Shown piece after piece: positions 7,227-58,611 of a stretch of 64,000 nucleotides of DNA; position 1 is the stretch's first letter, and each line of letters starts with the position of its first letter. The notes below the pieces were generated by a model. The model had not been told where the DNA came from and did no database searches. It saw only the letters and a list, made by a program, of their open reading frames with translations. A program made the position numbers and the translations under genes. The DNA comes from an uncultured Gammaproteobacteria bacterium (lineage in GTDB: Bacteria > Patescibacteriota > Patescibacteriia > VMEV01 > CAYQCH01): NCBI GenBank assembly GCA_964352335.1, contig CAYGRO010000004.1:42970-106969 (forward strand). Reading direction: 5' to 3'.

Positions 7227-7324
7227 TTTCCACATATAAAATTTTCTTCACGATAAGGAGTGTGCAATAATAGAGTTGTGTCACAGTCGACACTTCAATA
7301 TAAACCCGAACATGGAGAAATGAT

Positions 7325-8002
7325 ATGTATCCTGAAGAGGAAGTATCAGTTAGTCAGTCTCCTGCTCGGGAGATTGCAGAAAACAAGCCGACCACTGGTC
7401 GCACGAGTCGTGAACTTTTTAAGATCGAGGATCAGCTTCGGTCGGTCTATGACTCGCACCTTAAGCCCTTACTGTTTTTGGAGCCGCAAGTTGTGCGCAA
7501 TGCGCTGGCTCGCAATGGGGTCTTTCTTAGGGATGACCCCGAAGAGGCTCTTCCATTTAGCCACTATGGTTACTATGCCGCAGAAGGCGTTGACCTACCT
7601 ATGTGGTCACATGGTGACAAGCAGTATGACCAGGTTTTGGAGTGCCCTCGACTACTAATCGCTAGCAGGATTCCCTCACAGAAGGAATTTCCTTTTTGGG
7701 GGGCAGCGAAGACGGCAAGTGATCTGGGAAACAAAGAAGGCGTAGCAGAGTTTTTTCATCAAGGTGGCTCCATGCTCTTGGTGACATTAGCTGCATCAGG
7801 TGAGCTCATCTGGGATTGGTCAGACATTGACTCTATTCCCGGTGGTAGTTTCCATGGGCGTCTCGTGCCTGTGAAGTACAGCATTTACGAGTTGTTTCAT
7901 CCTCAATACGGGATTATCACTCGTTTACTCAATACTGTGCGTGGAGTTCAAGACCCACCCACAGAGAAGATCAGTGCTCGCTTCGAGCGATTTTTCTTCT
8001 AA
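7325..8002 (+). CDS. Hypothetical protein in a GC-rich island
   Basis: 225-aa ORF with a GGAG SD 8 nt upstream. Its GC content is clearly above the flanks. No domain recognised. Confidence 0.45.
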   Translation: MYPEEEVSVSQSPAREIAENKPTTGRTSRELFKIEDQLRSVYDSHLKPLLFLEPQVVRNALARNGVFLRDDPEEALPFSHYGYYAAEGVDLPMWSHGDKQYDQVLECPRLLIASRIPSQKEFPFWGAAKTASDLGNKEGVAEFFHQGGSMLLVTLAASGELIWDWSDIDSIPGGSFHGRLVPVKYSIYELFHPQYGIITRLLNTVRGVQDPPTEKISARFERFFF

Positions 8003-8085
8003 CCGACAGTCACGCTTCCAAGCTAACACTCGTCGGTTATACCTTATATAAAAATTTTACCAGCCAAATTATTGTTTGAGGTATA

Positions 8086-8118
8086 ATAAAAATCTTCAGC
8101 CTAGCTGAAGATTTTTAT
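8086..8118. terminator. Bidirectional terminator between convergent genes
   Basis: Perfect 12-bp stem aaaatcttcagc/gctgaagatttt with A/T runs on both sides. Confidence 0.75.
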
Positions 8119-8128
8119 TTTGCTTAAT

Positions 8129-9121
8129 TTAGAGTTGTTTTAAAATTGCTTCTACTTTTTCTACGGATTCTACTTGCATCAATTCAGATCTCGCTTTACT
8201 TGCATTGGGAAATCCTTTGATATACCAACCTAAATGTTTTCTCAATTCCATCATTCCATGATTTCCTTTTTGTTCAAACATCATTTTTGTATGGTTAATC
8301 ACAGTAGACTTTACATACTCCCAATCTGGTTCTTTGTATGTTCCTGTTTGAATATAGTCTTTCATTTGTTGCATAAGCCAGGGTTTTCCCATAACTCCTC
8401 GCCCAATACCAACACCGTCAACACCTGTTTGTTCTAAGACTTCTTTTGCTCGTTCTGGAGTTGTAATTCCACCATTAACTAAAACAATTCGTTCACCAAC
8501 AATTTCTTTAACGCGTTTAATTTGTTCAATATCTAAATCTCCAATAAAACCTTGTTCATAGGTTCGGCCATGAATCATAACCGCTTTAAAATCTAAATCT
8601 TGAATTCTTTCCATCATTTGTACAGCTGTCATTTTTTCCACATCATAAGCATCTCGCCGTTCTTGGTCAGCAAGTTTCATATTAATCCCAGCTCGAATTT
8701 TAATCGACGTAGGGATTGTTTTTGCACCTTCAATTGTTGCTTTTACAATGTCATAAACACGATCCAAATCCGTCATCAGCTTCACCCCAGATCCATGTTT
8801 GACCACACGTTTAGAAGGGCAACCAAAGTTAATATCAACACCATCTGCCCCCATTTGTTCAACAACACTTGCACCATTTTTAAATAATTCAGGGTCTTTC
8901 CCAAAGATTTGGCAAACATAGGGACGTTGTTCTTCGGTAAAATCCATTTGTTTTTTCATTTTTTTAAAGGCATGGAAAATACCGTCAACAGAAACAAATT
9001 CAGAATACACAACATCCGCACCATTCAATTTAAGAACGCTACGAAAAGCTTTATCCGTTACACCATCCATTGGAGCAACAGCAAAAATAGGTTTTGGCAA
9101 TTTTTCCCAAAAGTTATTCAT
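8129..9121 (-). CDS. dus: tRNA-dihydrouridine synthase
   Basis: Motif FAVAPMDGVTDKAFR and a TIM-barrel FMN region. Confidence 0.85.
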   Translation of the reverse strand: MNNFWEKLPKPIFAVAPMDGVTDKAFRSVLKLNGADVVYSEFVSVDGIFHAFKKMKKQMDFTEEQRPYVCQIFGKDPELFKNGASVVEQMGADGVDINFGCPSKRVVKHGSGVKLMTDLDRVYDIVKATIEGAKTIPTSIKIRAGINMKLADQERRDAYDVEKMTAVQMMERIQDLDFKAVMIHGRTYEQGFIGDLDIEQIKRVKEIVGERIVLVNGGITTPERAKEVLEQTGVDGVGIGRGVMGKPWLMQQMKDYIQTGTYKEPDWEYVKSTVINHTKMMFEQKGNHGMMELRKHLGWYIKGFPNASKARSELMQVESVEKVEAILKQL

Positions 9122-9164
9122 ATCAAAAGAATATAACAGAAAAACAGCTGTTTTTCAAGCTTGG

Positions 9165-9215
9165 ATGTCGATATCAACCTCTCCTCCTAGGAAAGGGTCG
9201 GGGAGAGGTAAATGA
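9165..9215. repeat. GC-rich palindrome of the CCTCC-TAG-GGAGG type, 3' of cysS
   Basis: The sequence cctctcctcctaggaaagggtcggggagagg. Confidence 0.5.
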
Positions 9216-9239
9216 GAAGTATTATCTCAAATCTGTCCC

Positions 9240-10682: not shown

Positions 10683-10749
10683 ATATTCTGCTAAGATTAG
10701 TTACTATAATGAGATTATACGGGCTGATACCAAATGTCAATTTAGCAGT

Positions 10750-11733
10750 TTAAATCCATTTTTTCACTTTAAAATAAGCGAAGGCAAAGCTAGATAAAAT
10801 GACAACAAAAACAACAGTCAAGACAAAACCTTGGGGGTGATTGGCAAAAGGAATGAGCTTAAAGTTCATTCCAAAAATAGAGGCGACCATGGTCATTGGT
10901 GCAATAATTACAGTAAAAATGGTCAAGTTTTTTAAAATATCGTTTAAGTAAAACGAGCTCAAAGATTCATAAGTCTGTCGTAATGTGTCGATCGCTTCTG
11001 TATGCGATTCCAAATTTGTCCAAACAATACGTGGATACTCCATCATGTCTTGAATTCCCGCTAAGATTGTTCGTCCATGTGAAAATTCTGGAAGCACATT
11101 CGCGAGTTTATCAATAACCATCGAATGGCTACGCATAATTTTACGAAAATCCACGACTTCTCTTTCAATGGTAAATAAATCTTTTACAATTTTTCTATTT
11201 CCTAAATCTTCACTAAAAATCTTTTCTTCAATTTGATCAATCGAAAGTGCTAATCGATCAGAAATTGGCATGCAGTACGCGTACAATTGTGTTGTAAGCC
11301 AAGGGACAATATTTTCAGGGGAAAAATGATGTGGAGAGAATTCAGCTGCGAGATTGTCTAATTCTTGTTTCAGAATTTGCATTGGTGGAATTGTATTTGT
11401 ATGAACAAAAAGCACCATCTCTGGAAAAATGAACATTTCAAGTTTAGCGGAAGTTATTGAATTGGTTTTCGTATTTTCAATTGGGAAAATTAAAATAACA
11501 AAAAGATAATTTTCTCGAACAGTAATTTTTGGTCGTTGAAAAGTTGGCAATGTATCGTTTAAATCGGATCGTTCAATTTGAAACTCTTCAGAAAGAAATT
11601 GTATTTCTTCTTTTGCCGTTTTTTTGATATTGACAATTGAGTAAGGGCCATAATGAATTGTTTCAATATGGTTGGAAATTTTTTCAAATTGTGGGATTTG
11701 TTTTTGTTTCATATTTCTTCTCTTATTGTACAA
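10750..11733 (-). CDS. corA: Magnesium transporter CorA
   Basis: C-terminal GMNF motif and two TM helices. Confidence 0.85.
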   Translation of the reverse strand: MYNKRRNMKQKQIPQFEKISNHIETIHYGPYSIVNIKKTAKEEIQFLSEEFQIERSDLNDTLPTFQRPKITVRENYLFVILIFPIENTKTNSITSAKLEMFIFPEMVLFVHTNTIPPMQILKQELDNLAAEFSPHHFSPENIVPWLTTQLYAYCMPISDRLALSIDQIEEKIFSEDLGNRKIVKDLFTIEREVVDFRKIMRSHSMVIDKLANVLPEFSHGRTILAGIQDMMEYPRIVWTNLESHTEAIDTLRQTYESLSSFYLNDILKNLTIFTVIIAPMTMVASIFGMNFKLIPFANHPQGFVLTVVFVVILSSFAFAYFKVKKWI

Positions 11734-14141: not shown

Positions 14142-14483
14142 AATAACTGTGTCGATTAGTAAAATGTGAACCTATAGTACCAGAAAAGAATTTCTTTGGC
14201 AAGGGGGTGCTGTCAAAAATAGATGACAACAATACCTCCGTAAATACAGGGCTAGATAGACTTATACACTTTTCGCTTTGACGATAACCTGTTTTCGCAT
14301 TATTCTATGAACAGTATGAAAACAACGCAAATTACAACATGGATGAAGCAATGCCTCAATTTCGCAATTGTGGTCTTTGTCATTTCAGGTTGTAGCGTTG
14401 GGTAAATACGAAAACATAACAAGTTTCGAAACACTCTCAATGCTAGGCCTAAAAACCTGGCGTTTGTCGTTTTAGGGGAAATC

Positions 14484-14756
14484 GTGAGTAATCAAAACAA
14501 CTCTGTTTGTGAAGTTTCTGCAGAGTCAGCGGAATCTGCAGAAGTCGTCGTCAAGCCTGAGGATTACTGGACTCGTCGTTCAGAAATTCCTCCTCAGTAT
14601 CTCGCCGGTGCTCGTCGTGCAGCCCTCCTTGCGTCAGCTCGCGTTCAGTCGGATCGGCTGCATGCGGCTTGCGTGGTCGAGGCTAGGCAGGCACATCAGT
14701 CGGGGCGAATTCCCGGCATACCAAGCGAAGACCAGTTGGTCCCACGCTCCTACTAG
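14484..14756 (+). CDS. Hypothetical ORF in a GC-rich island (14480-14860); it could instead be a structured RNA
   Basis: GC-rich segment carrying two overlapping ORFs of 90 and 115 aa. No homology recognised. Confidence 0.25.
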   Translation: MSNQNNSVCEVSAESAESAEVVVKPEDYWTRRSEIPPQYLAGARRAALLASARVQSDRLHAACVVEARQAHQSGRIPGIPSEDQLVPRSY

Positions 14757-14867
14757 TCTAAGGAGCAGGGAACAAGACGGAGATGGGGCTAGGAAGCATT
14801 TTGCAACCTGGTTCCGTCTCCGTTTTCATTTTATCGCAAAAAACGATACTCTATAAAAAGGAATGAT

Positions 14868-20774: not shown

Positions 20775-20942
20775 TTTTTTGCTAATATTAGATGAATATT
20801 TTTATATCACACCAGAAGCTATTGACAAAAAAGTAATAATATGGTATTGTTATTTTTGTTGATGAGAGATTTCTGAGATCGTAAGCCTCGATTTAAGAAA
20901 TCTCTCTTCAACAGCTGGTCAAACCAGCAGAAAGGAGTTGCC

Positions 20943-21401
20943 ATGCGCAACTTCATCATCCTCTCGATCTTCGTCTTCCTCACCGTCTTCACCGGCTGCG
21001 CCGCGACCCCGTTCGCAGAGCTCTCGCCCAGCGAGAAGCTGGAAATGGTCTACGGGAACTCGGGCGTCTCGTACCAGATGAAGGGGAGCGTCGTCACCCT
21101 CGCGCAGAACACCAACACGCTCGAGGTCATCAACAACCGCTTCGACTCCAACCCCGTGATCACGTTCTCCTGCGAGAGCGTGGGCGAGGAGCGGGTCAAC
21201 TCCAAGCTGGTGGGCGGGATCGTCGGTGGCGGCATCTACCACCACAAGGTGGAGATCCCCAAGCGCTTCTACAATAAGGAGGGGGTCATCTTGAGGATCG
21301 CCACTCCCATCTCGACCACCGAGAACAACGACGGCAGCTCGACCACGACTGAGTCGGTCGAGATCTTCGACCTGAAGGGAGCGCTCCTCAACCGGGAGTA
21401 G
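20943..21401 (+). CDS. Putative lipoprotein in a roughly 62% GC island
   Basis: A signal peptide ending in FTGC, a GGAG SD, and strong GC3 bias unlike its neighbours. Confidence 0.6.
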   Translation: MRNFIILSIFVFLTVFTGCAATPFAELSPSEKLEMVYGNSGVSYQMKGSVVTLAQNTNTLEVINNRFDSNPVITFSCESVGEERVNSKLVGGIVGGGIYHHKVEIPKRFYNKEGVILRIATPISTTENNDGSSTTTESVEIFDLKGALLNRE

Positions 21402-21480
21402 CTCCTAACAACCCTCACCGAGGGCGAAAAAACTCTTGCCTAGCAAGAAGACTTTCGTCGCTGGGTGAGGGTTTTTTCGT
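21400..21480. terminator. Long GC hairpin terminator(s) between convergent genes
   Basis: The stem aaccctcacc...ggtgagggtt followed by a T run. Confidence 0.6.
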
Positions 21481-21664: not shown

Positions 21665-21689
21665 CTATTTTTGTTTAATAATGATAATT

Positions 21690-21860
21690 GTAGTGTATCA
21701 CAATACCCCCACCAGACCACCTCCTTTGCCCTAGGGTCTTGAGCTCTGGGTCGAAAGACAAGGGGAGGGAATAAAGTTAATCAACATTTTCCCTCCTCAC
21801 CCGGCTAAGCTTGCCCGCCTTTGGAGGAGGGAGGAGCCTGCCTGTCGGCAGACAGGGTCT
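21690..21860. repeat. Composite GC-rich palindromic element
   Basis: The stem ccaccagaccacctcc...ggtctggtggagg and the pair cctcctcac.../...ggaggagggagg. Confidence 0.4.
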
Positions 21861-21936
21861 GGTGGAGGGGCGAAAAACAAAAAAGCCCTTTTCAGGACTT
21901 ATTTTGCAGTTTTGTAAATTTACAAGTTTGCAGTTT

Positions 21937-22149
21937 TTAAGCTTGCGCTTCTGGATTCATCTTTGCAACTTCTTTTTTCAAAGTTCGAAGACATCTAGTA
22001 CAAACTTTCATCTTTCCGCCTCCATATCGTAAAGTTTGAAGGTTAGGGTATTTTCGATGTTTGGTTGTAGGGTTCCAGTTACCACGGAGGAGTTTTCGAG
22101 GAGTGATAATCATCGATCCTTTTCCGCATGCATCACAGATTCGAGACAT
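21937..22149 (-). CDS. rpmB: Ribosomal protein L28 (Zn-ribbon type)
   Basis: [11 protein letters not shown]...[22 protein letters not shown]...CTRC. Confidence 0.8.
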
Positions 22150-23781: not shown

Positions 23782-23862
23782 GTAAAATTGTAAAGACGTA
23801 AAAACTGTAAAACCGTAAAGCTTTACGCATTTACAAATTTACGTTTTACGCTTCTAAAAAAT
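23782..23862. repeat. k-mer-iterated inverted-repeat spacer of the gtaaa family
   Basis: gtaaagacgtaaaaactgtaaaaccgtaaagc followed by gctttacgcatttacaaatttacgttttacgc. It shares ctttacgcatttaca with the spacer at 38681-38762. Confidence 0.7.
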
Positions 23863-26699: not shown

Positions 26700-27095
26700 A
26701 TGCATTCACAATTTCAAAGACTGTTTCATTTGATTAAGAAAACAGGTGATAATATTATCTTATTAGACCCTGACTCAAATGATCCCTATATTTTGATGAA
26801 CTTAAATGCATACGAAGAGTTACTAGAAAGCTATTCAAATACGAATGCAGGAGAAAGAGTACTTCAGTCAAATCAAGACTCAATCAGACCAGTGAGAAGA
26901 CCACAAATAAAAAAGGTCTCTCAAACTGATGTAGATGAGTCAGAAGTGCTACCTGGTATCGATACAGAAGTTGTTGATCTCAGTGTAGAAGAAAAGGAGT
27001 CTGAACCAGAACAAGGAGAAAAGTACTATTTTGAAGAAGTAGAAGAAACAGAAACAGAAGGAGAAAAAGACGAAAAAGAAAAAGGGGATAACTAA
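26700..27095 (+). CDS. Hypothetical protein with an acidic tail between fusA and tuf
   Basis: 131 aa with an E/D-rich C-terminal half. The N-terminal NIILLDPDSNDPYILMNLNAYEELLE segment loosely resembles the Phd/YefM fold. Confidence 0.4.
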   Translation: MHSQFQRLFHLIKKTGDNIILLDPDSNDPYILMNLNAYEELLESYSNTNAGERVLQSNQDSIRPVRRPQIKKVSQTDVDESEVLPGIDTEVVDLSVEEKESEPEQGEKYYFEEVEETETEGEKDEKEKGDN

Positions 27096-31058: not shown

Positions 31059-31172
31059 ATCAATGCCCCAATGTTTCAGTGCTTCAGTATTACAGTGATG
31101 ACCATCACTTCAACACTGAGACACTGAAGCACTCTAGCAATGAAACACTGAAACAATTCAATACTGAAATTT
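31059..31172. repeat. k-mer-iterated inverted-repeat spacer of the cagtg/cactg family
   Basis: gtttcagtgcttcagtattacagtgatg ... cactgagacactgaagcactc...aaacactgaaac. Confidence 0.7.
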
Positions 31173-32853: not shown

Positions 32854-32936
32854 ATTTCAGCCTGTAGCTAGTGACTAGTCGTTTGTAAGATGTACAAACA
32901 ACCAGCTACTAGCTACGAGCTAATAGCAATAATTAT
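32854..32936. repeat. k-mer-iterated inverted-repeat spacer of the ctgtagc family
   Basis: cctgtagctagtgactagtcgtttgta...tacaaacaaccagctactagctacgagc. Confidence 0.7.
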
Positions 32937-35344: not shown

Positions 35345-35426
35345 ATTGATGCCAGTGGCCAGTGGCTAGTAGCTTGTAGAAATACTAAAAGCTACCAGCT
35401 ACTAGCTACAGGCTACTAGAAAAACT
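35345..35426. repeat. k-mer-iterated inverted-repeat spacer of the ctgtagc family
   Basis: ccagtggccagtggctagtagcttgtag...ctaccagctactagctacaggctactag. Confidence 0.7.
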
Positions 35427-36635: not shown

Positions 36636-36714
36636 AAAACCATTGACCATTGACATGTGACCTCTGACAAAGTAAGGTCAAATGTCAATAGTCAAGGGTC
36701 AAATGTAAAAAATT
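36636..36714. repeat. k-mer-iterated inverted-repeat spacer of the ttgac/gtcaa family
   Basis: ccattgaccattgacatgtgacctctgac...ggtcaaatgtcaatagtcaagggtcaaatg. Confidence 0.7.
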
Positions 36715-37640: not shown

Positions 37641-38231
37641 ATGTCTGAAACATCTAAACCAACTGAATCAAAAGAAGTGACTGAAAAGAAATCAGCTTCT
37701 ACTCCAAATCAAAGAAATGGAGAAAAGCGACAATCTTCTCGTCCAAGACGTCCACGTAAGCCACGTGAAGAACAAGAATTTGATCAAAAAATCATTGATG
37801 TTTCACGTGTTACTCGTGTAACAGAAGGTGGTAAACAAATGTCTTTTAGAGCAACTGTTGCTATTGGAGATAGAAAAGGACGTGTTGCTGTTGGATTAGG
37901 AAAAGGATTAGATGTTACAAATGCTATTAATAAAGCAGTTGGGCGTGCTAAAAAAGACTTAGTAACTATTCCATTAGATGATGTTGGAAGTATTCCACAT
38001 GAGTTAACAGAAAAATTTGGAGCAGCTAAAATCATGATGCGACCAGCAAAACAAGGGACTGGTATTATTGCAGGTGGTGTTATGCGAGTTATTTTAGAAT
38101 TATCTGGTATTAGAAATGTTGTTGGTAAAATGAATGGTGCGAAGAATAAAATTAATAATTCTAAAGCAACTATTGAAGCATTAAAACGTTTACAAACTGA
38201 AACAGCACGAAATGCTCAACGTGGTAAATAA
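37641..38231 (+). CDS. rpsE: Ribosomal protein S5 with a basic N-terminal extension of about 40 aa
   Basis: S5 core. It is directly followed by L15 with no L30 gene between. Confidence 0.92.
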   Translation: MSETSKPTESKEVTEKKSASTPNQRNGEKRQSSRPRRPRKPREEQEFDQKIIDVSRVTRVTEGGKQMSFRATVAIGDRKGRVAVGLGKGLDVTNAINKAVGRAKKDLVTIPLDDVGSIPHELTEKFGAAKIMMRPAKQGTGIIAGGVMRVILELSGIRNVVGKMNGAKNKINNSKATIEALKRLQTETARNAQRGK

Positions 38232-38236
38232 ATCCT

Positions 38237-38680
38237 ATGTCTAACTTACAATCACACAATTTACAAGGTCCAAAAGGTGATGCTAAACGAAAGCGTAAAC
38301 GACTTGGTCGTGGTAATGCTTCTGGTTCAGGAACTTATGCTGGACGTGGTCTTAAAGGACAAAAATCGCGTTCTGGTGTTAGTGGTTTAAAACTAAAAGG
38401 GATTCGTCGAAGAATTCTTTCTATTCCAAAATTACGAGGGTTCACAAGTCTTTCTGCAAAAAATGCAGTAGTAAATCTTGGTGAATTAGAACAGGCTTTC
38501 ACTGCTGGAGCAATTGTTTCTCCAAAAACATTAGTGAAAAAAGGTTTGATTGTTACCCCAAGAAATGGTGTGAAAATTCTTAGCGAAGGATCATTAACAA
38601 AAGCACTTACATTTAGAAAGGTAAAAGCATCAGCTACTGCTAAAGAAAAAATTGAAAAAGCTGGTGGGAAGTTTGAATAA
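38237..38680 (+). CDS. rplO: Ribosomal protein L15
   Basis: Conserved L15 sequence. Confidence 0.92.
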   Translation: MSNLQSHNLQGPKGDAKRKRKRLGRGNASGSGTYAGRGLKGQKSRSGVSGLKLKGIRRRILSIPKLRGFTSLSAKNAVVNLGELEQAFTAGAIVSPKTLVKKGLIVTPRNGVKILSEGSLTKALTFRKVKASATAKEKIEKAGGKFE

Positions 38681-38762
38681 AATCGTAAACAACGTAAACT
38701 TGTAAAAACGTAAAATCTTATTAATTCTTCTTTACGATTTTACACCTTTACGCATTTACAAT
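38681..38762. repeat. k-mer-iterated inverted-repeat spacer of the gtaaa family
   Basis: cgtaaacaacgtaaacttgtaaaaacgtaaaatc...tttacgattttacacctttacgcatttac. Confidence 0.7.
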
Positions 38763-40837: not shown

Positions 40838-40939
40838 ACAAATGCAGATTAAAGACAGATTAACTCCAGACAAATACAGTCATCTGCACTAGTCTGAATC
40901 TAATCTGAACTTATCTGAACAAGTCTCTGTGAATCAGCT
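40838..40939. repeat. k-mer-iterated inverted-repeat spacer of the cagat/atctg family
   Basis: gcagattaaagacagattaactccagacaaatacagtcatctgc...tagtctgaatctaatctgaacttatctgaac. Confidence 0.65.
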
Positions 40940-45752: not shown

Positions 45753-45942
45753 AATATTTTAGATAAAGTTGTGTATTAATAGGTGAAAATAAAGGTAATG
45801 TGCTCGTTGGTTTATTGCTAAACCAAGAACTCATTACAATCCTATGTCAAAAACCAAAACAGCAATTTTGCCGAATATTTTTGAAAAGGCATTATCTCTG
45901 CACAAGATAAAGACAGCTACTATAACAAGAACATATGTAGAG

Positions 45943-46497
45943 ATGTCAGATGAAGAACTTGTTTCTGAAGTACAAAAAGGTGACGAAAAAGCATTCGAAC
46001 ATATTGTACAAAGATATCAAGGGAAACTTTTTGCTTATATTATGCGATTAATGAATCATCGTGATGAAGCACATGATATTACGCAAGATGTTTTTCTAAA
46101 AGCGTACAAGCATATTCAACGCTTTGATACAGAAAGAAAATTCTCTTCATGGGTATATCGAATTGCTCATAATGAAACGGTCAACTGGCTCAAGAAAAAA
46201 ACGAGAGCAAAAGTGGAATCGCTCGATAGTCATGTAGAAAATGGATTCCAATTAGCAGATAACCTGAATACAGAAAAAGCATATATAAAAGAAGAAGACG
46301 GAGGAGTCGTACGCGAGGCAATAAATAGCCTGCCAGCAAAATATAAAGAAGTCATGGAATTGCGCTACTTAAAACAACAGTCCTACGAGGAGATAAGTGA
46401 AAAATTAGATAAACCAATTAATACTGTCGGAACTCTCATTAATAGGGCAAAAAAGAAATTAGCTTTGGCACTAGAGAATGCCTCCCAAACAACTTAA
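45943..46497 (+). CDS. ECF (sigma-70 family group 4) sigma factor
   Basis: Region 2 DITQDVFLKAYK and a region 4 HTH. The start is placed at MSDEEL. Confidence 0.8.
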   Translation: MSDEELVSEVQKGDEKAFEHIVQRYQGKLFAYIMRLMNHRDEAHDITQDVFLKAYKHIQRFDTERKFSSWVYRIAHNETVNWLKKKTRAKVESLDSHVENGFQLADNLNTEKAYIKEEDGGVVREAINSLPAKYKEVMELRYLKQQSYEEISEKLDKPINTVGTLINRAKKKLALALENASQTT

Positions 46498-46533
46498 GGT
46501 AAGTTTGTCGCCAAATGTTTCTCGTTTATTCCA

Positions 46534-47481
46534 TTGAATAGCGACCTCATTTGGCGATTCGTCTTTATGAAGAATCGACCAACCAATAAACAATTAGAAG
46601 AGATGGTAAATCAAATCTGTGAATCAGATGATTTTGATTGCAAAGAAGCAATTATGTCTCAAATCAAAAGTGGGCGCACACAAATGCGGTCACGTTGGTT
46701 GATTTTAAGTGAAGAATTTGGTTTGCGTACAACTTGGATTCTTACGGTATTTCTTCTTATTGGGCTTGTTAATCTCATCGCCTTTATTATCAGCCGTAGC
46801 CCAGAAACAGCCTTTTTAGAATTCGGTGGTTCTGGTTTTGGGGTTGTATTAAAATCTTTTCCTTATGGTTGGTCTGCCTTAGCCATTGCCTTAATTCTTT
46901 TTACTATTGTGGCAATGAAACGTTTTTCATGGTCCTATTTATTTCCATTCAAATTATTTAGCTTTTTATTGGTTGGGGGGATATTAACAGCTGGTTCTGT
47001 TGCTTTTGCAACAGGAGTAAATGAAAGTCTTTATAATAAGCTCATTGAAAACCCAGGTTCTGGTGATTCCTTATTAGCAAAATTATATTGTCTTTGCGCT
47101 AATAGAGATTTAGATTCAGATAACGCATTAATGGGAGAAATTTTAGATGCAAATAGTGAACAAATTATTGTACAAACGCCAAAGTTAGAAGTAGTAACAA
47201 TTAATTTAACAACCACAACAGAATGGATGGATGATATTAATCCACAAACGTTTTTCACGGTAAAAGTATTGGGAGTAAGGAATGATAAAAATACTTTTAC
47301 GGCTAGCCATATTAAAGTGCATGATGTTCAGGGGATGGACTTAGTTCGTTCTCAAGAAGATTGTGAAAATAAACAGCAATGGGATCGTAAGCGCGAAATA
47401 GCCGATCAAAGAAGGAATGCTGTTATTCAACCATTTACACCTGCCATTGGAACAGCACAATTAGTTCGATCGATTTACTAA
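46534..47481 (+). CDS. Membrane protein, candidate cognate anti-sigma factor
   Basis: It lies directly downstream of the ECF sigma gene. It has a cytoplasmic N-terminal segment with Cys residues, several TM helices and an extracytoplasmic C-terminal domain. Confidence 0.4.
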   Translation: MNSDLIWRFVFMKNRPTNKQLEEMVNQICESDDFDCKEAIMSQIKSGRTQMRSRWLILSEEFGLRTTWILTVFLLIGLVNLIAFIISRSPETAFLEFGGSGFGVVLKSFPYGWSALAIALILFTIVAMKRFSWSYLFPFKLFSFLLVGGILTAGSVAFATGVNESLYNKLIENPGSGDSLLAKLYCLCANRDLDSDNALMGEILDANSEQIIVQTPKLEVVTINLTTTTEWMDDINPQTFFTVKVLGVRNDKNTFTASHIKVHDVQGMDLVRSQEDCENKQQWDRKREIADQRRNAVIQPFTPAIGTAQLVRSIY

Positions 47482-50567: not shown

Positions 50568-50600
50568 GAGTCGTTAAAAAATGTGAAAGCCTCCCTTTCC

Positions 50601-51032
50601 TTAGTGGTTGGGGAGGCTTTGTGATTTCGAAGTGGCCGGGGCTACTTCAGTGGTGTCGATGGGCTTGAAGTCTGGTCCAAGCAGGCGACGATTAATGCGA
50701 TTGCCTTTTTGGTCCGTCGTGAGCTCGATGTAGTTTTCACCAACCTTACGATAGTGGATCAAGTAGTTTGAGTTACTCATTCCGGTGGGGCCCGTTTGTG
50801 AGGGGCTTGGGTCAAGTAGGTTGACCGGTTCCGGAGGAGCTACCGTGAGCAGCTTAGTCACATCAATTGGTGAGAAGAGCGGTTGGGGCTCATCTTGCTT
50901 GTCCTGCACCGTAGCAGGTACTGATGGTTCATTCTGCAGATTCTGGAGATATTGGATCCCGCCACAGAGGCAAATGTCAAAGATGAGCAAGCAAATGCCC
51001 AAGAGGCACAAAGACTTATCTTCTTTATTCAT
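50601..51032 (-). CDS. Membrane-anchored hypothetical protein in a GC-rich island, paralog 1
   Basis: N-terminal TM helix and the C-terminal motif VGENYIELTTDQKGNRINRR. 143 aa. Confidence 0.5.
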   Translation of the reverse strand: MNKEDKSLCLLGICLLIFDICLCGGIQYLQNLQNEPSVPATVQDKQDEPQPLFSPIDVTKLLTVAPPEPVNLLDPSPSQTGPTGMSNSNYLIHYRKVGENYIELTTDQKGNRINRRLLGPDFKPIDTTEVAPATSKSQSLPNH

Positions 51033-51460
51033 CTGGTCTTTTCCTTTTCTGTGGTAACGAACTCTCTGCGGATCTCGTTACCATTTTGGTCTTGGTAGAT
51101 TTTGAAGGTGTTTTTTCCCACCTGCACGGTAATCACGAATTGAGCTGTTGAGAATGATCCAGCTCTCGAGTGACCCGACTCTTGTGCGGCTACACCGCTA
51201 CTAAGCCCAACAATATTACTGTTGAGGTTGACGGTGATGATGGTGGGGATGGGGCTGGCAATTATTTGCTGCGCCATTGGCGCCTTCTTCTTGGTTCGCC
51301 GTTCCGTATCGAGGTTCGTCATGACCAAGAAGAAAGGATAGTAGATGGTGAGCAAAACGATACCCACTTTGATCCAGTACTTTTCTTCTTCCCAGTTTTC
51401 GTTCTTCACTTTGTTTTTACTTTCGTTTAGTGTTTTTCTACAAAGTTCATCATACAGCAT
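51029..51460 (-). CDS. Membrane-anchored hypothetical protein, paralog 2 (start moved to MLYDEL)
   Basis: The C-terminal motif VGKNTFKIYQDQNGNEIRR matches paralog 1. With the internal start the length is also 143 aa. The two genes overlap by 4 nt. Confidence 0.45.
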   Translation of the reverse strand: MLYDELCRKTLNESKNKVKNENWEEEKYWIKVGIVLLTIYYPFFLVMTNLDTERRTKKKAPMAQQIIASPIPTIITVNLNSNIVGLSSGVAAQESGHSRAGSFSTAQFVITVQVGKNTFKIYQDQNGNEIRREFVTTEKEKTR

Positions 51461-51469
51461 TATTCTTGC

Positions 51470-51900
51470 ACAGTGAATTCTACAGAAAAAGGAACGGCCG
51501 CGACACCAAAGGGGAGGTGTCGCGGCCGCTTGCCCGAGGGCATAAGGGGATATGGAGAGCATCGGAGGACGCTCATTGTGGGAGTCCCTAGTTCAAATGA
51601 TTGTTCCACAGCGTTCTTCCTGGTTTCGCTATGGGTCATCTGCACGGGGCCAAGATGGTATACGGGGCTTCACCAACGAGGTTTAGCACGGTCTACGATC
51701 TTATTGGCTGTTCGGGACATGTGTAGGTGGCTGCGTCCCCCAAGAATCATTGGAAAGTGGGGGAGAGGGGGACGCAGCCTTAGTTTTGTAGCTGTCTCAG
51801 AGCAAGGAATCGATGGGGATGGACGGCTAAGCTAATTCGTTTTCGCTTTGCCTACATCAAACTCCACAGTGGTATTCAACGACTTTCCGGTGTTTTTAGC
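51470..51900. other. GC-rich non-coding segment with strong hairpins; candidate structured RNA or leader
   Basis: Hairpins ggccgcgacacc...ggtgtcgcggccgc and gctgcgtccccc...gggggacgcagcc, plus a long-range pairing gctgtctcagagc/gctctgagacaac. The overlapping ORFs have junk-like composition. Confidence 0.25.
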
Positions 51901-52029
51901 TCTGAGACAACAGAAAAAATATATTTGCATAGTTATTAAACAATGTCAAGACTTGCTATTGAGGAAAATCTATGATAAATTTGAGAATAGTTATCAATTT
52001 AACAAGTTTTTTAGCTAAATTTAGCCAAA

Positions 52030-52413
52030 ATGTCTTATCAAACTAGTCAAAAACAAGCGATTTTACAGCATGTGATGCTTTCTAAAAGTCATCCAACAGC
52101 TGATGAAGTCTTTAAAGCAGTCAAATCTGACCTGCCTAGTATTGGTTTTGCCACGGTTTATAGAAATTTAGCGACTTTAGCGAAAGAAGGAAAAATCAAA
52201 GAAGTACAATTTATTGATAAAAAGAAAAGATACGAAGGAAATACCCATCAACATCAACATTTTATTTGTACAAAATGTGAACGTATTGTTGATATGGAAT
52301 TATCTGAATTACTCAATATCAAAGACGCTGTTACAAAAATGCAATGTCATGAGGTGACAGAATATAATCTCGAATTAATTGGTATTTGCGCTGTTTGTAC
52401 AACTGACCACTAA
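52030..52413 (+). CDS. fur: Fur-family metalloregulator (Fur/PerR-like)
   Basis: A winged-helix N-terminus, an HQHQH motif and a C-terminal CxxC pair. Confidence 0.75.
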   Translation: MSYQTSQKQAILQHVMLSKSHPTADEVFKAVKSDLPSIGFATVYRNLATLAKEGKIKEVQFIDKKKRYEGNTHQHQHFICTKCERIVDMELSELLNIKDAVTKMQCHEVTEYNLELIGICAVCTTDH

Positions 52414-52532
52414 CCACTGACGACTGACCACTGACGACTGACCACTGACCACTGACCAATGACAGCTGACTACTGACAATAAACAGTTTAATGTATAGTC
52501 AGTAGTTAATTGTCAGTTGTTCGTTGTAGAAT
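52414..52532. repeat. k-mer-iterated inverted-repeat spacer (cactgac tandem 7-mers then gtcagt)
   Basis: ccactgacgactgaccactgacgactgaccactgaccactgaccaatgacagctgactactgac...gtcagtagttaattgtcagttg. Confidence 0.7.
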
Positions 52533-53666: not shown

Positions 53667-53702
53667 TATTTTACGCTTTACCAATTTACGCTTTTACATT
53701 CT

Positions 53703-54806: not shown

Positions 54807-54842
54807 CTAATGTGTTTGTCTTGTATTAGGTACTAGACGAGC

Positions 54843-55427: not shown

Positions 55428-55460
55428 ATCAATGGATCAATAAACAATGATCAATTAGCA

Positions 55461-55488
55461 AAAAGCGCTCGTTTGGGCGCTTTTTTGT
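55461..55488 (+). terminator. Terminator hairpin after prx; its 3' half is the left copy of a 19-bp direct repeat
   Basis: aaaagcgctcgtttgggcgctttttt. Confidence 0.6.
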
Positions 55489-55545
55489 GTTGACAAAAAA
55501 GAAAAAATATGCTATCATTTTCCCAGTCTTGTTCCTGGAGGATGT

Positions 55546-55794
55546 ATGACTCGACTGGCTATTAGCTACTATTGTGATGAGTTGGGCTCAGAGGCATTGG
55601 TTCGCTTGATCAAGCGATCCATGGATAGGCGCGAAGAGATTCGCGTTCATCTGGAAGGTCGTCTTCCTGTTATCTGTATTCCCACTCCGATGAACGGAGA
55701 TATATCACCTGACGGTAGCATCTTTTGGGTAAAAGCGCATGAGCGGTATTTCCTCTCTCGTGCATTGACCCAAGTCGACGTTTTTGTCGACTAG
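55546..55794 (+). CDS. Hypothetical 82-aa protein on a GC-rich insert
   Basis: A GGAGG SD is present. Its GC content is above the flanks. Confidence 0.4.
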   Translation: MTRLAISYYCDELGSEALVRLIKRSMDRREEIRVHLEGRLPVICIPTPMNGDISPDGSIFWVKAHERYFLSRALTQVDVFVD

Positions 55795-56013
55795 TCGCTC
55801 ATTTGAGCAATAGTTGTACTGAGCTAACCCTCAGAACGAATGGTCGACATTTGTCGGCAACAATACAAAGAGGTTAGATGCTTTGTATTTCCGCGTTTAA
55901 CGACGTATACAGGGAAACCTGTTTAACAAGTCTTGGCGGTCGGACTAAAGTGATCGCACTTCAAGCCAGAAATGGCTACTTGCAGACATTGCCTTGCGCC
56001 GTGTCTGCTTTTA

Positions 56014-56032
56014 CGTTTGGGCGCTTTTTTGT
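56014..56032 (+). repeat. Right copy of the 19-bp direct repeat cgtttgggcgcttttttgt
   Basis: Exact 19/19 match to 55470-55488. Confidence 0.7.
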
Positions 56033-56055
56033 TTTTAAATTGAATTCATGTTTAA

Positions 56056-56871
56056 ATGAAACCTATGTCAACAGAAAAAACGTGGGAACAATTTTATAAA
56101 AACAATGACGGGATCTATTCTTCGGGTCATTTTTCTGATAGGAAAGATATTGATGGGCAGATTTATAATAACTATCAAATAGCTTATCGAGAAGAATTAT
56201 TGAAGTATTCTGGAAAAGAATTAGCTGTTGAGCTTGGTTGTGGGAATAAACCAATTTTTGAAGTGCTGGGGCATTTTGACTCAGTTTACTATACGGATAT
56301 TTCAAAAGAAGCTTTGGTTCAAGCAAAAAAGGCATTTGAAGCATTGGATACGAGTAAACTAATAACAGATTCAGTCTATTTTGAAGAAATGAATGTAGAT
56401 TCTTTTTTACTTTTTGATAACGACTCTCTTGATCTCGTCTTTAATACAAGGGCACCACATAGAGATGAGACTTCGAAGGAATTGTATCGAACACTCAAAG
56501 ATGATGGAGTTTATGTTTATCAAACAATAGGGGAAGAAGATTTCAAAGATTTTAAGCTTTTGTTACAAGATGGTCGGTTTTATGATGATTATTTGAAACT
56601 AGGGAAAACAAGATTTCAGGTTGTAAAAGAATCACTTATCCAAGCTAGTTTTAATCAAGACAATATTGAGCTTATTTTTGATGATCGATATAAAAACTAC
56701 TTTGACTCAAAAGAAGAATTTAAAGAAAAACTTTGGTTATTAGTTGGTGACTTCAATTTTGATTCTCCTGAGCTTGATAAGGTTATCGATGAATATATTG
56801 ATTCACATACAAATGAAGAAGGGAAGATTTGGGTGGAGAATCATCGAATTGTTATTAAGGCTGTAAAATAA
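56056..56871 (+). CDS. Class I SAM-dependent methyltransferase
   Basis: The glycine-rich motif LGCGNKP. Confidence 0.55.
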   Translation: MKPMSTEKTWEQFYKNNDGIYSSGHFSDRKDIDGQIYNNYQIAYREELLKYSGKELAVELGCGNKPIFEVLGHFDSVYYTDISKEALVQAKKAFEALDTSKLITDSVYFEEMNVDSFLLFDNDSLDLVFNTRAPHRDETSKELYRTLKDDGVYVYQTIGEEDFKDFKLLLQDGRFYDDYLKLGKTRFQVVKESLIQASFNQDNIELIFDDRYKNYFDSKEEFKEKLWLLVGDFNFDSPELDKVIDEYIDSHTNEEGKIWVENHRIVIKAVK

Positions 56872-56947
56872 CCATGTCATTCCCGCGAAGGCGGGAATCT
56901 ATCTGGAATGATGAGATACCTGCCTCCGCAGGTATGACAGCTTAAAT

Positions 56948-57610
56948 ATGCCAATCAAAATCCACCCATCCTGGAAAAGTAAATTATCACAAGAATTTGA
57001 AAAACTTTACTTCAAAGAGCTTTCTGATTTTGTAAAAAATGAGTATTTGACCAAGCGAGTTTATCCACCGCCCAAACAAATGTTTTCAGCCTTTGACCAT
57101 GCGCCATTTGATAATGTGCGAGTAGTTATTCTTGGGCAAGATCCTTACCATGGGCCAAATCAAGCGAATGGGCTTTGTTTTTCGGTGAGTGATGGAGTGA
57201 AGATTCCACCGTCATTGAGAAATATTTACAAAGAATTAGAATCTGACCTTGGAATTGTTCCTAATGAATCTGGGAATCTAGAAAGATGGGCAGAACAGGG
57301 AGTTTTTTTATTAAATGCGACTTTATCAGTTTTAGCTGGCCAAGCTGGGTCACATCAAAAGAAAGGGTGGGAAGAGTTTACAGATGCTGTGATTAAAACG
57401 CTTTCGGATGAACGTGAGCACCTTGTTTTTATCCTCTGGGGCGCTTATGCGCAACAAAAGGGGGTGGTGATAGATACAAGCAAGCACTTGGTTCTTAAGT
57501 CGCCACATCCTTCTCCATTTAGCGCGCATAGTGGTTTTTTTGGAAGTAAACCTTTTTCAAAAACGAATACTTATTTAACAGAGCATGGTTTTGAGCCAAT
57601 TGCTTGGTAA
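56948..57610 (+). CDS. ung: Uracil-DNA glycosylase family 1
   Basis: Motifs [11 protein letters not shown] and HPSP. Confidence 0.9.
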
Positions 57611-57668
57611 GTTATCAACAATTGTTTGAAAAATGTAGAAATGTTAAAGTGTTTTCACTCGTCTCGTC

Positions 57669-58265
57669 GTGGGCATCGGCCCTCGGCGTTTTTCATTCCC
57701 GCAGTTAGATAAGGGGGGACAATTGACCGAATCGAATGACCGTATTTTGCCTGAGGAGTTCTACAAGCTTCTCATGCACTCCATAACCGAACAACTGGCA
57801 ATGCTCAAGATTTCTGTCGATGCGACAGAGGAAGACTTTGTTCGCCAGCTGCTCAGGATCATCACCTCACTCCATCAAGTTCGTCGCATGCTCACCCAGC
57901 ATGATCCGCGCTTGAAGGAGATGATTGGTCAGATCATCGAGGAAGATGACTACTCTGATCCTGAGCTCGAGACTCGGCGTGCGGAGCGTGATGAGTTGAG
58001 CCAAGACTTCCTCGACGACGTCGAGATTGACCCGACGGACTTCCGTCTGGCGGAGACGCTGGTGCTTCTCGGGCAGTCCACCGGCTCGCTTCCTCCTTTG
58101 GACACCATTGACTTGGTCCAAAAGTTCTCGCGAGAGGCACTTGGGATCGGGCTCACCGTGGCCAACCAGGCAGGGGAATGCGAAGAAGTTTTCGTTCATC
58201 GCATCGTCAGCGTCATCAACGGCGAGATGGCTAGAAGCAGTTCTGCCGTTAAGGCGCTCACGTAA
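57669..58265 (+). CDS. Hypothetical acidic protein in a GC-rich island
   Basis: GC-rich 198-aa ORF with a GC hairpin at its 3' end. Confidence 0.4.
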   Translation: MGIGPRRFSFPQLDKGGQLTESNDRILPEEFYKLLMHSITEQLAMLKISVDATEEDFVRQLLRIITSLHQVRRMLTQHDPRLKEMIGQIIEEDDYSDPELETRRAERDELSQDFLDDVEIDPTDFRLAETLVLLGQSTGSLPPLDTIDLVQKFSREALGIGLTVANQAGECEEVFVHRIVSVINGEMARSSSAVKALT

Positions 58266-58611
58266 GCAACCATCCCTCTCAGCTGGCACGCGCTGGCTGA
58301 GAGGGGAAACATTATTAGTTATCCACAGTTTGATTTGAAAGTAATCTGATTTCTTAAAAATTAGGCAATTTGGTCACGGCTATGAGTTTGTGTTAGAATG
58401 TAATCACTCACAAAGGATAACGTCTAGACCTTTCGTACCACAACATGTTGTGGTATTATAAACCCAGAGGTCACTATATCTAGCAAACTGGGTTTGACGA
58501 AAAACCAGATCGGACGAGACCCTCTCATTGATCTACATACAATCGAGAATACGTCCCGCGATGTGGTTTTTTGTATGGGAAAATTTAGTTTCTCCCAATT
58601 AATTGAGTTCT

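Follow-up and report, generated by a model that had tools for sequence, protein, structure and literature searches.

Why should a chromosome that is AT-rich, and whose genes mostly lack a Shine-Dalgarno (SD) sequence, carry small GC-rich islands with SD-led open reading frames (ORFs), and is their composition that of a recent import or an old and lasting property? The question is raised by six islands in the 64,000-nucleotide stretch of DNA analysed here (the window). With moderate confidence, we favour the second possibility: that the islands are lineage-restricted, fast-evolving, autonomous accessory cassettes, in which high GC and SD sequences are old and persistent.

Composition and expression signals

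The mean GC of the window is 0.373, and that of the six islands, each 0.4-1.4 kb long, is 0.47-0.62 (Table 1). A 400-bp GC profile peaks at 0.51 (7.4-7.8k), 0.52 (14.4-14.8k), 0.615 (21.0-21.4k), 0.44-0.52 (50.4-52.0k), 0.47 (55.6-56.0k) and 0.56 (57.8-58.2k), a 150-bp scan returned the identical six segments, and GC3 is 0.48-0.95 in island ORFs against 0.09-0.34 (about 0.2) in native ones. All three measures agree with the first-pass annotation, which had described six GC-rich islands in an AT-rich genome. The 150-bp scan also picked up an extra 290-bp non-coding GC-rich stretch (21671-21960) and a few marginal segments (0.45-0.47) of 200-280 bp, within or between native genes.

The GC excess is mainly one of synonymous sites. 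G+C at four-fold sites is 39-93% in the islands versus 20% in natives, while amino-acid usage resembles that of native proteins except for a Lys to Arg shift. Since A+R+G+P make up 23.1% of island proteins versus 23.2% of native ones (19.7% in the ORF with a GC3 of 0.95), an origin in a high-GC proteome does not fit.

Table 1. Features of the six islands (positions in the window).
Feature	Position	Strand	GC3	Details
Island 1	7301..8050	+		GC 0.49; between aldolase (+) and Dus (-)
Island 1 ORF (I1), 225 aa	7325-8002	+	0.48	GGAG at 7314-7317; GC1/2/3 =.59/.41/.48
AT-rich 29-codon ORF beside island 2	14316..14405	+		lipoprotein-type signal peptide (..VFVISGC), ends TAA
Island 2	14431..14860	+		GC 0.51; between rpmE (-) and DNA-alkylation-repair gene (+)
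Island 2 ORF (I2), 90 aa	14484-14756	+	0.48	GTG start; AGGGGA at 14474-14479
Island 3 promoter	20822..20850	+		TTGACA-N14-TGG-TATTGT; exact match, predicted
Island 3 body	20915..21480	+		AAGGAG 20932-20937; GC-rich hairpin 21407-21479
Island 3 lipoprotein ORF (I3), 152 aa	20943-21401	+	0.95	GC 0.61
Island 4 ORFs	50601..51460	-	I4a 0.58, I4b 0.55	I4b 51029-51460, I4a 50601-51032; terminator hairpin 50579-50627
Island 4 leader	51465..51914	-		GC-rich structured non-coding RNA, ~450 nt; MFE z -8.95
Island 4 promoter	51921..51949	-		TTGACA-N14-TGC-AAATAT; exact match, predicted
Island 5	55470..56035	+		22-nt direct repeats 55470-55491 and 56014-56035, 21/22 identical
Island 5 promoter	55490-55518	+		exact TTGACA-N14-TGN-WANNNT match, predicted
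Island 5 ORF (I5), 82 aa	55546-55794	+	0.49	GGAGG at 55537-55541
Island 5 3' part		+		220 nt non-coding; own hairpin 55982-56008, then T run
Island 6	57611..58310	+		conserved AT-rich promoter region 57611-57660; GC-rich 5' UTR; hairpin 58274-58306
Island 6 ORF (I6), 180 aa	57723-58265	+	0.66	TTG start; AAGGGGGG at 57711-57718

An SD-like sequence lies upstream of five or six of the seven main island ORFs, as against a GGAG, GAGG or AGGA core at -20 to -4 in 1 of 53 native genes, and the earlier reading that SDs mark the islands and are missing from natives thus stands. Against an assumed anti-SD sequence, mean duplex energy is -0.3 kcal/mol in natives (n = 53), -6.1 to -9.6 kcal/mol for I1, I2, I3, I5 and I6, and -4.0 for I4a. 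SDs are also found on island genes of relatives. Exact matches to TTGACA-N14-TGN-WANNNT number three in 64 kb versus 0.22 expected, and each of the three, in the correct orientation, marks the 5' edge of an island (3, 4 or 5); in the relative L091, the sole exact match heads a 253-aa cassette that is missing from the window. The GC-rich hairpins noted earlier around several islands are indeed there. Folding z-scores are -2.7 to -6.0 for island units, -1.4 to -3.6 for island coding sequences alone and about -0.6 on average for native segments; in L091 the coding-sequence values are not consistently low (I6 homologue +0.08, I4 homologue -0.56).

Searches of Pfam, PHROGs, NCBIfam, PADLOC, PDB and AlphaFold gave no function for island ORFs. 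Their translations show a lipobox and transmembrane segments, which suggests that several cassettes encode envelope proteins. Compared with 5.8 billion proteins, I1 matched only itself and I3 nothing. At island 3, the gene caller used on the second assembly described below (contig L003) chose an antisense ORF of 108 aa. Island 2 may be non-coding: its 90-aa ORF is overlapped by a 115-aa ORF in a different frame, database records include neither product, and gene calling on the second assembly (contig L096) left this segment empty. The neighbouring 29-codon ORF shares the reading frame of the island-2 ORF, with no other stop between them, and may be a pseudogene or fusion remnant.

Islands in related genomes

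The comparison with relatives covers islands 4, 5 and 6. L091 is collinear with 47.8-61k of the window, and native genes share 66-82% DNA and 61-93% protein identity. Native dS between the window and its relatives is 0.9-3.6, that is, saturated, and native four-fold sites retain 17% memory relative to L091. GC islands of L091 lie at the island-4 locus, at the island-6 locus, between UDG and the I6 homologue, and at its own end.

At the island-4 locus, L091 has a homologous ORF and a GC-rich leader of 435 nt in the same place (z -7.19). The leader of the window ends in a 15-bp terminator-like hairpin (51493-51530) directly upstream of the ORFs; the two leaders have a similar GUCUCAG/CUGAGAC closing helix, and their sequences are not alignable. 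I4a and I4b, single-pass membrane proteins as read from their translations, had been described as two paralogues of 143 aa. Paralogy is supported by a weak mutual similarity (E 0.004-0.007) and by their common match to one L091 ORF (3170-3610; E 1e-9 and 2e-6), but the length of the second ORF does not hold, as its open frame is 177 aa and no SD precedes the 143-aa version (ATG 51460).

Three lineages carry the island-6 family in synteny, and it is under purifying selection. In L090 and L091-L095, homologues (P0008, P0009) lie at this locus, with the same RNR gene immediately downstream and 64% (L090) and 47% (L091) identity; GC3 is 0.66 in the window, 0.59 in L090 and 0.67 in L091, and dN/dS is 0.13 versus L090 and 0.32 versus L091. 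GC3 has persisted at this level although I6 four-fold sites keep no memory relative to L090, against 37% in the adjacent RNR gene. Decay under native bias predicts 87% S>W, yet by parsimony with a saturated outgroup, and in small numbers, third-position changes (S>W:W>S) are 10:10 on the window branch (P = 6e-5); the L090 branch, at 18:7, does have an S>W excess. An exhaustive search with I6, an acidic and predicted all-helical protein, found only these two syntenic relatives. Its start is most likely TTG 57723 behind AAGGGGGG, since relatives share both the start codon and its SD, and not GTG 57669, from which a 198-aa ORF had been annotated.

At least two islands, 4 and 6, therefore predate the split from known relatives, and have been GC-rich and SD-led throughout; present and still GC-rich in those genomes, they are neither recent imports nor assembly errors. 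Island 5 (47% GC, GC4 0.39) does look like an insertion, given that L091 lacks it, with a 213-bp spacer at the locus, and that it is flanked by 22-nt direct repeats, a duplication of the ahpC terminator's 3' half.

Origin of the GC-rich composition

It is possible, but unlikely, that GC-biased gene conversion at recombination hot spots, or local GC-biased mutation, keeps these loci GC-rich in situ. The rapid divergence that this implies would account for the lack of detectable homologues of the ORFs, and I6 does exceed the adjacent RNR gene in both dS (2.2 vs 0.70) and dN (0.29 vs 0.02). The concentration of the excess at synonymous sites beside native-like amino acids, its extension over the non-coding parts of the cassettes, and the single dinucleotide signature shared by the island sets of the two genomes (delta* 28.7 for whole islands, 60 for coding sequences only) also agree with it. 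However, native genes recoded to a GC3 of 0.6 reproduce this signature only partly (delta* 94-114), the islands have sharp edges that match those of expression units, and within the units the promoters, like some 5' UTRs, are AT-rich. Moreover, neither I6 branch shows a W>S excess in the counts given above. To our knowledge, a bacterial gene-conversion bias near the size needed has never been reported.

That all six islands are recent, not yet ameliorated acquisitions from high-GC donors, as the first-pass annotation had argued, appears quite unlikely. Its observations of foreign-looking composition and SDs stand: the dinucleotide signature sets islands apart from natives (delta* 104; null 41 +/- 12), as do the SD signals; island 3, with its extreme GC3, has no known relatives, and island 5, with its near-perfect repeats, and the L091 cassette without a window counterpart fit gain. 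Horizontal transfer and genomic islands are also reported to be common in Patescibacteria (PMC12455944). Against this, two of the six islands, 4 and 6, have syntenic homologues of the same GC in relatives at distances where native dS is saturated, an outcome that had been named in advance as contrary to import. No high-GC donor was found in the valid searches (I1, I3 and I6 proteins), the seven main island ORFs had no counterpart in phage or plasmid records, and viral contigs held no relative of I1, I3, I4 or I6. The window has no integrase, transposase or tRNA, the island proteins are native-like and not high-GC-like in amino acids, and GC does not track apparent age, GC4 being 0.39 in young-looking island 5 and 0.65 in old I6. 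A single ancient import from an extremely GC-rich ancestor followed by passive amelioration is strained as well, given that an F81-type calculation resting on the four-fold memory value predicts, from a GC4 near 1.0, about 0.54 today, and 0.49-0.65 is observed.

Known systems resemble the islands in part. Lawrence and Ochman reportedly provided an amelioration framework for compositionally atypical, horizontally acquired islets, which are likewise short segments of deviant GC, codon usage and dinucleotides between conserved genes and vary in presence among relatives, as do island 5 and the L091 cassette; unlike them, two of the islands predate the split from relatives un-ameliorated, no donor is known, and amino acids are native-like, with neither mobility genes nor tRNA targets. 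Bacteriophage morons are autonomous promoter-ORF-terminator units of different GC between conserved genes, and the islands similarly place one or two ORFs with their own strong promoter and terminator inside a conserved block of differing composition; unlike morons, they lie outside a prophage, as their neighbours are housekeeping genes (ribosomal, repair and redox), and PHROG, phage records and viral contigs gave no match. O-antigen and capsule clusters, hypervariable surface loci, are also envelope-related and fast-diverging, at fixed positions, with a deviant composition that persists across lineages, but they are large, low-GC biosynthetic clusters of many genes whose enzymes can be recognised, whereas the islands are single small high-GC ORFs. 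Bacterial ORFans, which have been attributed to integrative elements (PMC2718499; PMC13012023), are likewise short, taxonomically restricted, fast-evolving and atypical in composition, with no detectable homologues. Classical ORFans are AT-rich relative to their host, as stated in a passage of PMC2718499 citing Daubin and Ochman; the islands, in contrast, are GC-rich, with canonical expression signals stronger than those of natives.

A further reading is highly unlikely, namely that island 2, the island-4 leader and the 3' half of island 5 are mainly elements of structured non-coding RNA, with ORFs as by-products of GC-richness. The island-4 leader folds very strongly in two genomes, the island 2 unit has a z of -5.96 and no called gene, and, GC-rich DNA being poor in stop codons, ORFs of 80-90 codons are by our own estimate only weakly significant; but I1, I3, I4 and I6 have codon-position structure or a dN/dS below 1, leader sequence differs between the two genomes, and no Rfam family matched, either at gathering thresholds across the whole window or at relaxed thresholds in two regions covering islands 3-6.

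Finally, the islands are genuine chromosomal segments, and the alternative raised earlier, that assembly or binning spliced in fragments of a GC-richer organism, is refuted as far as assemblies allow and can practically be dismissed: the compositional contrast alone favours it, and against it Logan, an independent second assembler, spans all six islands, together with the native sequence on either side, at 100% identity in run ERR3534985 (islands 3, 4 and 5 in contigs L003, L097 and L084) and islands 1 and 6 also in run ERR3534997, homologous GC islands occupy the same loci in relatives from unrelated samples, and the promoters in front of the GC-rich bodies are AT-rich and of native type.

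A model of autonomous cassettes

The analysis establishes that the islands are real, and with this synteny, protein-level conservation, expression signals and persistently high GC. Under the reading of old accessory cassettes, each would consist of its own near-consensus sigma-70 promoter with an extended -10 element, as predicted, then a 5' UTR with an SD, a GC-rich ORF and a 3' GC-rich hairpin, to which island 4 would add its long structured leader. Cassettes would occupy junctions between housekeeping operons that are variable in the lineage, and would therefore be gained, lost and duplicated there. What keeps GC high may be continual exchange with an unsampled gene pool, GC-biased conversion, or selection that acts on how structured or stable the mRNA is.

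Bacteroidota are known for SD-poor translation initiation, and the native genes here, with no SD and A/T-rich leaders before their starts, resemble theirs; unlike in Bacteroidota, a class of SD-bearing genes is interspersed among the SD-less ones. The lineage was not identified as Bacteroidota. It has no uL30 gene, and its IscS matches include Patescibacteria. Native genes would initiate translation on unstructured A/U-rich leaders with no SD, and the more structured mRNAs of the GC-rich cassettes may depend on the SD for ribosome recruitment. If this dependence is true, the genome runs two translation-initiation regimes.

Composition and anatomy of the islands

The mean GC content of the window is 37.3%, and its GC profile in 400-bp steps rises sharply in six places (table). 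The same six segments were recovered by a 150-bp scan, together with a 290-bp GC-rich non-coding segment and a few marginal ones (0.45-0.47) of 200-280 bp. GC at third codon positions (GC3) is 0.48-0.95 in island ORFs as against 0.09-0.34 in native ORFs, those outside the islands, and at four-fold sites G+C amounts to 39-93% in islands versus 20% in natives. A Shine-Dalgarno (SD) core lies upstream of one of 53 native genes; five of the seven island ORFs have anti-SD pairing energies of -6.1 to -9.6 kcal/mol, and a sixth reaches -4.0. The deviations in base composition, codon usage and genome signature by which transferred islands are recognised are all present. The first-pass annotation had thus described GC-rich, SD-bearing islands correctly, apart from three small points: the island-6 ORF begins most likely at TTG 57723, the second island-4 ORF has no SD at its ATG, and it is doubtful whether island 2 is coding.

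The island proteins are not of high-GC type. Ala, Arg, Gly and Pro together make up 23.1% of them versus 23.2% of native proteins, and 19.7% of the island-3 lipoprotein (GC3 = 0.95), in which Ile, Asn and Phe are abundant; the GC excess is therefore mainly synonymous. In dinucleotide signature, the pooled window islands differ from those of L091, a contig of a related genome, by a distance (delta*) of 28.7, and islands differ from their own natives by 104 (window) and 119 (L091), with a null of 41 +/- 12. Recoding native genes to GC3 = 0.6 explains this shift only in part. Since recoding does yield that part, the signature was rejected as decisive proof of a common donor, and as orthologues common to both sets also contribute, it is treated as suggestive only.

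The pattern TTGACA-N14-TGN-WANNNT has three matches in 64 kb (0.22 expected), which lie, correctly oriented, at the 5' edges of islands 3, 4 and 5, and a single match in L091, heading a cassette for a 253-aa protein. When one mismatch is allowed, the native dus and rpmE promoters appear, so the promoter type is native and the island copies are closer to consensus. Downstream of the promoter, each unit continues with an SD, followed by a body and a hairpin that are both GC-rich. A promoter and terminator of its own around one or two ORFs is the arrangement of phage morons, here predicted from sequence; unlike morons, the islands do not lie in a phage or prophage, since their flanks are housekeeping genes and no PHROG or phage matches turned up. 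An ECF-type sigma factor gene (Sigma70_r2 + r4_2) lies some 3 kb upstream of island 4 and is followed by the gene of a 315-aa protein that Pfam does not match; the promoters of the islands are housekeeping-type rather than ECF-type.

Folding z-scores are -2.7 to -6.0 for whole island units and -1.4 to -3.6 for the coding sequences alone, compared with an average of about -0.6 for 14 native segments; relatives are less consistent. The island-4 leader (about 450 nt) has a z of -8.95 versus shuffled sequence, and its L091 counterpart, with a z of -7.19, resembles it in a GUCUCAG/CUGAGAC helix that closes the start of the transcript. No convincing alignment of the two leaders was obtained, and the element may act as an attenuator or be a structured RNA that evolves fast.

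Several other stretches were recorded near the islands. An AT-rich 29-codon ORF with a lipoprotein-type signal peptide (..VFVISGC) stops at a TAA in frame with the island-2 ORF; no other stop lies between the two, which may represent a disrupted or fused lipoprotein gene. A GC-rich non-coding stretch that separates rpmB from a small Cys-rich ORF is closed by a 13-bp helix (CCCCCACCAGACC / GGTCTGGTGGAGG) and contains internal helices rich in CCUCC; its z is only -1.66, and it has no Rfam match. A C-rich, G-poor stretch (GC skew -0.43) contains an ORF of 103 aa that Pfam does not match, just downstream of a 60-aa DUF1508 ORF.

Coordinates of islands and other features (k, kb; positions in the sequence named)
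Feature	Sequence	Position	Strand	GC
Island 1, GC peak	window	7.4-7.8k		0.51
Island 2, GC peak	window	14.4-14.8k		0.52
Island 3, GC peak	window	21.0-21.4k		0.615
Island 4, GC peak	window	50.4-52.0k		0.44-0.52
Island 5, GC peak	window	55.6-56.0k		0.47
Island 6, GC peak	window	57.8-58.2k		0.56
GC-rich non-coding segment, 150-bp scan	window	21671-21960
C-rich, G-poor stretch	window	1790-2158, with 1516-1698		0.43-0.45
29-codon ORF, signal peptide	window	14316-14405
Stretch between rpmB and Cys-rich ORF	window	21690-21890	minus
Antisense 108-aa ORF, island 3	L003 (= window)	1972-2298 (= 20919-21245)	minus
Island 2, no gene called	L096	651-1378
131-aa ORF between fusA and tuf	window	26700-27095
uS5 and uL15 genes	window	37641-38680
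ECF-type sigma factor, 315-aa protein	window	45844-47481
Island-4 leader	window	51465-51914	minus
Island-4 leader counterpart	L091	3611-4045	minus
RNR upstream element	window	58390-58580
RNR upstream element	L090	about 750-940
RNR upstream element	L091	about 10720-10900
1466-aa RNR	L091	12809-17209
1466-aa-type RNR, start	window	from about 60.7k
Tandem-repeat spacers	window	23782-23851, 31109-31169, 32904-32927, 35351-35419, 36677-36710
Tandem-repeat spacers	window	38678-38760, 40882-40920, 52402-52477, 53669-53697

Independent assemblies and related genomes

Assembly chimerism had been offered as an alternative origin of the islands. Logan contigs, produced by a different assembler and retrieved by exact-protein look-ups, span every island with its native flanks in run ERR3534985, and islands 1 and 6 with their flanks also in run ERR3534997. 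The three loci aligned by blastn, on contigs L001-L003 and covering islands 1 and 3, match the window at 100% identity; in the remaining look-ups the contigs encode exactly the queried products, next to the same genes as in the window. As far as assemblies can show, the islands are thus not artefacts. On record for island 3 is an antisense 108-aa ORF instead of the sense ORF with GC3 = 0.95, and no gene was called in the Logan contig of island 2, where the earlier coding claim is accordingly doubtful. Gene callers trained on the AT-rich bulk mis-call such segments.

A homologue of the island-6 ORF (I6) lies directly upstream of the same ribonucleotide reductase (RNR) gene in L090, from a JGI sample, and in L091-L095, from five other runs. 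L091 is collinear with the window from 47.8 to 61k, in the order PcrA, a 180-aa membrane protein, Fur, IscS, two small redox proteins, AhpC, a methyltransferase, UDG, the I6 homologue and RNR, with native identities of 66-82% (DNA) and 61-93% (protein). Against a background GC of about 0.36-0.42, islands stand out in L091 at the loci of island 4 (0.50-0.53) and island 6 (0.55-0.58); it has an extra one between UDG and the I6 homologue (0.58-0.62; the 253-aa protein, a membrane protein with a GGGAGG SD) and a further one at the locus end, encoding a lipoprotein with a GGAGG SD. Its island-4 locus has a single ORF, on the minus strand, that is homologous to both paralogues of the window (E 1e-9 and 2e-6) and preceded by about 435 nt of GC-rich non-coding sequence. 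As to presence at the same locus, a further mark by which transfer is judged and one that could be compared for islands 4-6, island 4 is kept in L091 and island 6 in L090 and L091, whereas island 5 is missing from L091, which has a 213-bp spacer instead. In the window, island 5 is flanked by 22-nt copies that duplicate the ahpC terminator in its 3' half, and at the corresponding place L091 has GGGCTTCTTTGTTT, a shorter duplication with its copies 113 bp apart; this junction is therefore a recurrent recombination site.

The age of these loci bears on the earlier proposal of recent acquisition from a high-GC donor. Native dS between the window and L091 is 0.9-3.6, i.e. saturated, and four-fold sites of natives retain only 17% memory. 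With a dN/dS of 0.32 versus L091 and 0.13 versus L090, the I6 family is under purifying selection. Its rate of evolution far exceeds that of its neighbours: between the window and L090, dN is 0.29 for I6 and 0.02 for RNR, dS is 2.2 and 0.70, and four-fold memory is -0.05 (fully randomised) and 0.37. Nevertheless, the GC3 of I6 in the three lineages is 0.66, 0.59 and 0.67. Under an F81-type resampling model of our own, an ancestor with GC at four-fold sites (GC4) of 1.0 would now be at about 0.54; the observed values are 0.65, 0.49 and 0.61. Decay under the native bias predicts that 87% of third-position changes run from G/C to A/T, whereas the window branch has 10 in this direction and 10 in the reverse (P = 6e-5). 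The L090 branch has 18 and 7; these polarised counts come from parsimony with a saturated outgroup and are weak evidence, with a bias that runs toward inflating G/C-to-A/T changes. Nor does GC follow apparent age. Island 5, which looks young because its direct repeats are intact at 21/22 positions and it is absent in the relative, has a GC4 of 0.39, and the old island 6 one of 0.65. By these sequence comparisons island 6 and, through synteny, island 4 are no recent imports, and simple decay does not account for their GC-richness. Recent import from a high-GC donor thus fails for islands 4 and 6, which have syntenic, old, GC-rich homologues, and is unsupported for the rest.

The native sequence has features of its own. 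About 190 nt of non-coding sequence upstream of RNR (602 aa) are almost invariant in the three genomes despite saturated synonymous sites; with several hairpins, the last of them a terminator-like stem before a T run, and no Rfam match, this element is a candidate for an uncharacterised cis-regulatory leader. In L091 a 607-aa RNR is directly followed by a second, 1466-aa RNR with repeated RNR domains and TSCPD, in which an intein is suspected; the start of the same type of gene is found in the window, running off its end. Native spacers, above all in the r-protein cluster, consist of 7-8 nt tandem repeats in 3-11 copies (e.g. ACTGACC x10.9), often directly 5' of SD-less start codons, and some adjacent arrays appear by eye to be mutually complementary (TAAAAACG copies, then TTTACACA copies). 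The genes of uS5 and uL15 are 5 nt apart, with no uL30 gene between them, the ORF list gives uL3 an unusual length (280 aa), and the ORF between fusA and tuf has no Pfam match.

Searches for donors, families and mobility

The expectation that island ORFs would match high-GC donors was not confirmed for those of islands 1, 3 and 6 in large protein collections. Among 5.8 billion proteins, the island-3 ORF had no match and the island-1 ORF only itself. Exhaustive HMMER search with I6 returned exactly two representatives among 1.84 billion, P0008 in L090 (64% identity) and P0009 in L091-L095 (47%). A plausible donor lineage or mobile-element homologue, as looked for in transferred islands, was thus not found in the protein searches with these three ORFs. 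In tblastn searches of 50,697 phage records and 72,556 plasmid records, the seven main island ORFs had no match, and viral contigs held no relative of the ORFs of islands 1, 3, 4 or 6.

Family searches were equally negative. Island ORFs had nothing above noise in Pfam, PHROGs, NCBIfam and PADLOC, the I6 family alignment, used as a profile, found nothing in the PDB, and AlphaFold models (pLDDT 47.7 for the I6 family, 33 for the island-1 protein) were too poor for a fold search. No known structured RNA family was matched in the whole window at Rfam gathering thresholds; relaxed thresholds, applied to two regions covering islands 3-6, gave sub-threshold chance matches only. Hallmarks of mobility are wanting overall: no integrase or transposase domain was detected among the window ORFs scanned, a tRNA scan of the window found none, and flanking direct repeats, confined to island 5, were rejected as a general insertion mark.

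The island products on record are singleton clusters at 90% identity, and EF-Tu is likewise; therefore, the organism has no close relative in the collections. The best match of IscS in the genome collection was 52% identical, with mixed phyla, including Patescibacteria, and no synteny. Those Patescibacteria and the missing uL30 gene are two hints that the organism may belong to a Patescibacteria-like lineage. PcrA gave matches of 40% identity or less in the metagenome scan, and exact look-ups of S12 and L28 for relatives near island 3 returned the source population only.

Proposed accessory cassettes and the possible maintenance of high GC

Unlike integron cassettes, which have attC sites, form arrays near an intI/attI platform and are usually promoterless, the islands are dispersed over 51 kb and carry their own promoters, and no integrase domain was detected among the window ORFs scanned. 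Classical bacterial ORFans have been described as short and AT-rich and are attributed to integrative elements (PMC2718499), and more recent work likewise argues for import as the main source of ORFans (PMC13012023). In Patescibacteria, genomic islands are reported to be frequent (PMC12455944). In a limited literature search, no account was found of GC-rich, SD-bearing islets of single genes that persist in an SD-less genome.

The best-supported reading is that the islands are autonomous accessory gene cassettes, several encoding envelope proteins, which occupy variable junctions between housekeeping operons. They would have been gained (island 5, the 253-aa gene of L091), duplicated (island 4) and kept for long (islands 4 and 6), and would form one compositional and regulatory class with a consensus promoter, an SD and a GC-rich structured transcript. 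A foreign ancestry of the islands is plausible.

As for how GC would be kept high, we weakly favour selection acting on the structure or stability of the mRNA and coupled to SD-dependent initiation; GC-biased conversion where loci are prone to recombination and ongoing exchange with an unsampled gene pool are further candidates. Going beyond the cassette reading, we tentatively suggest, while considering it rather unlikely, that the islands are a distinct class of accessory genes, in part for envelope proteins, at a stable GC equilibrium of their own, with GC maintained by a GC-biased process or by selection on the mRNA and not a relic of transfer, so that GC-rich, structured, SD-led transcripts from consensus promoters would exist beside SD-less, AT-rich housekeeping ones as two regimes.

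Atypical composition is routinely taken as a sign of recent transfer and also flags contamination in metagenome-assembled genomes. This shortcut fails here, because GC-rich, SD-bearing islets are old at two loci. If their GC is actively maintained, the organism would offer a natural system for SD-dependent and SD-independent initiation in one cell, and a test both of mRNA structure and stability as drivers of gene-specific base composition and of the turnover of ORFan envelope genes at fixed junctions in a small genome.
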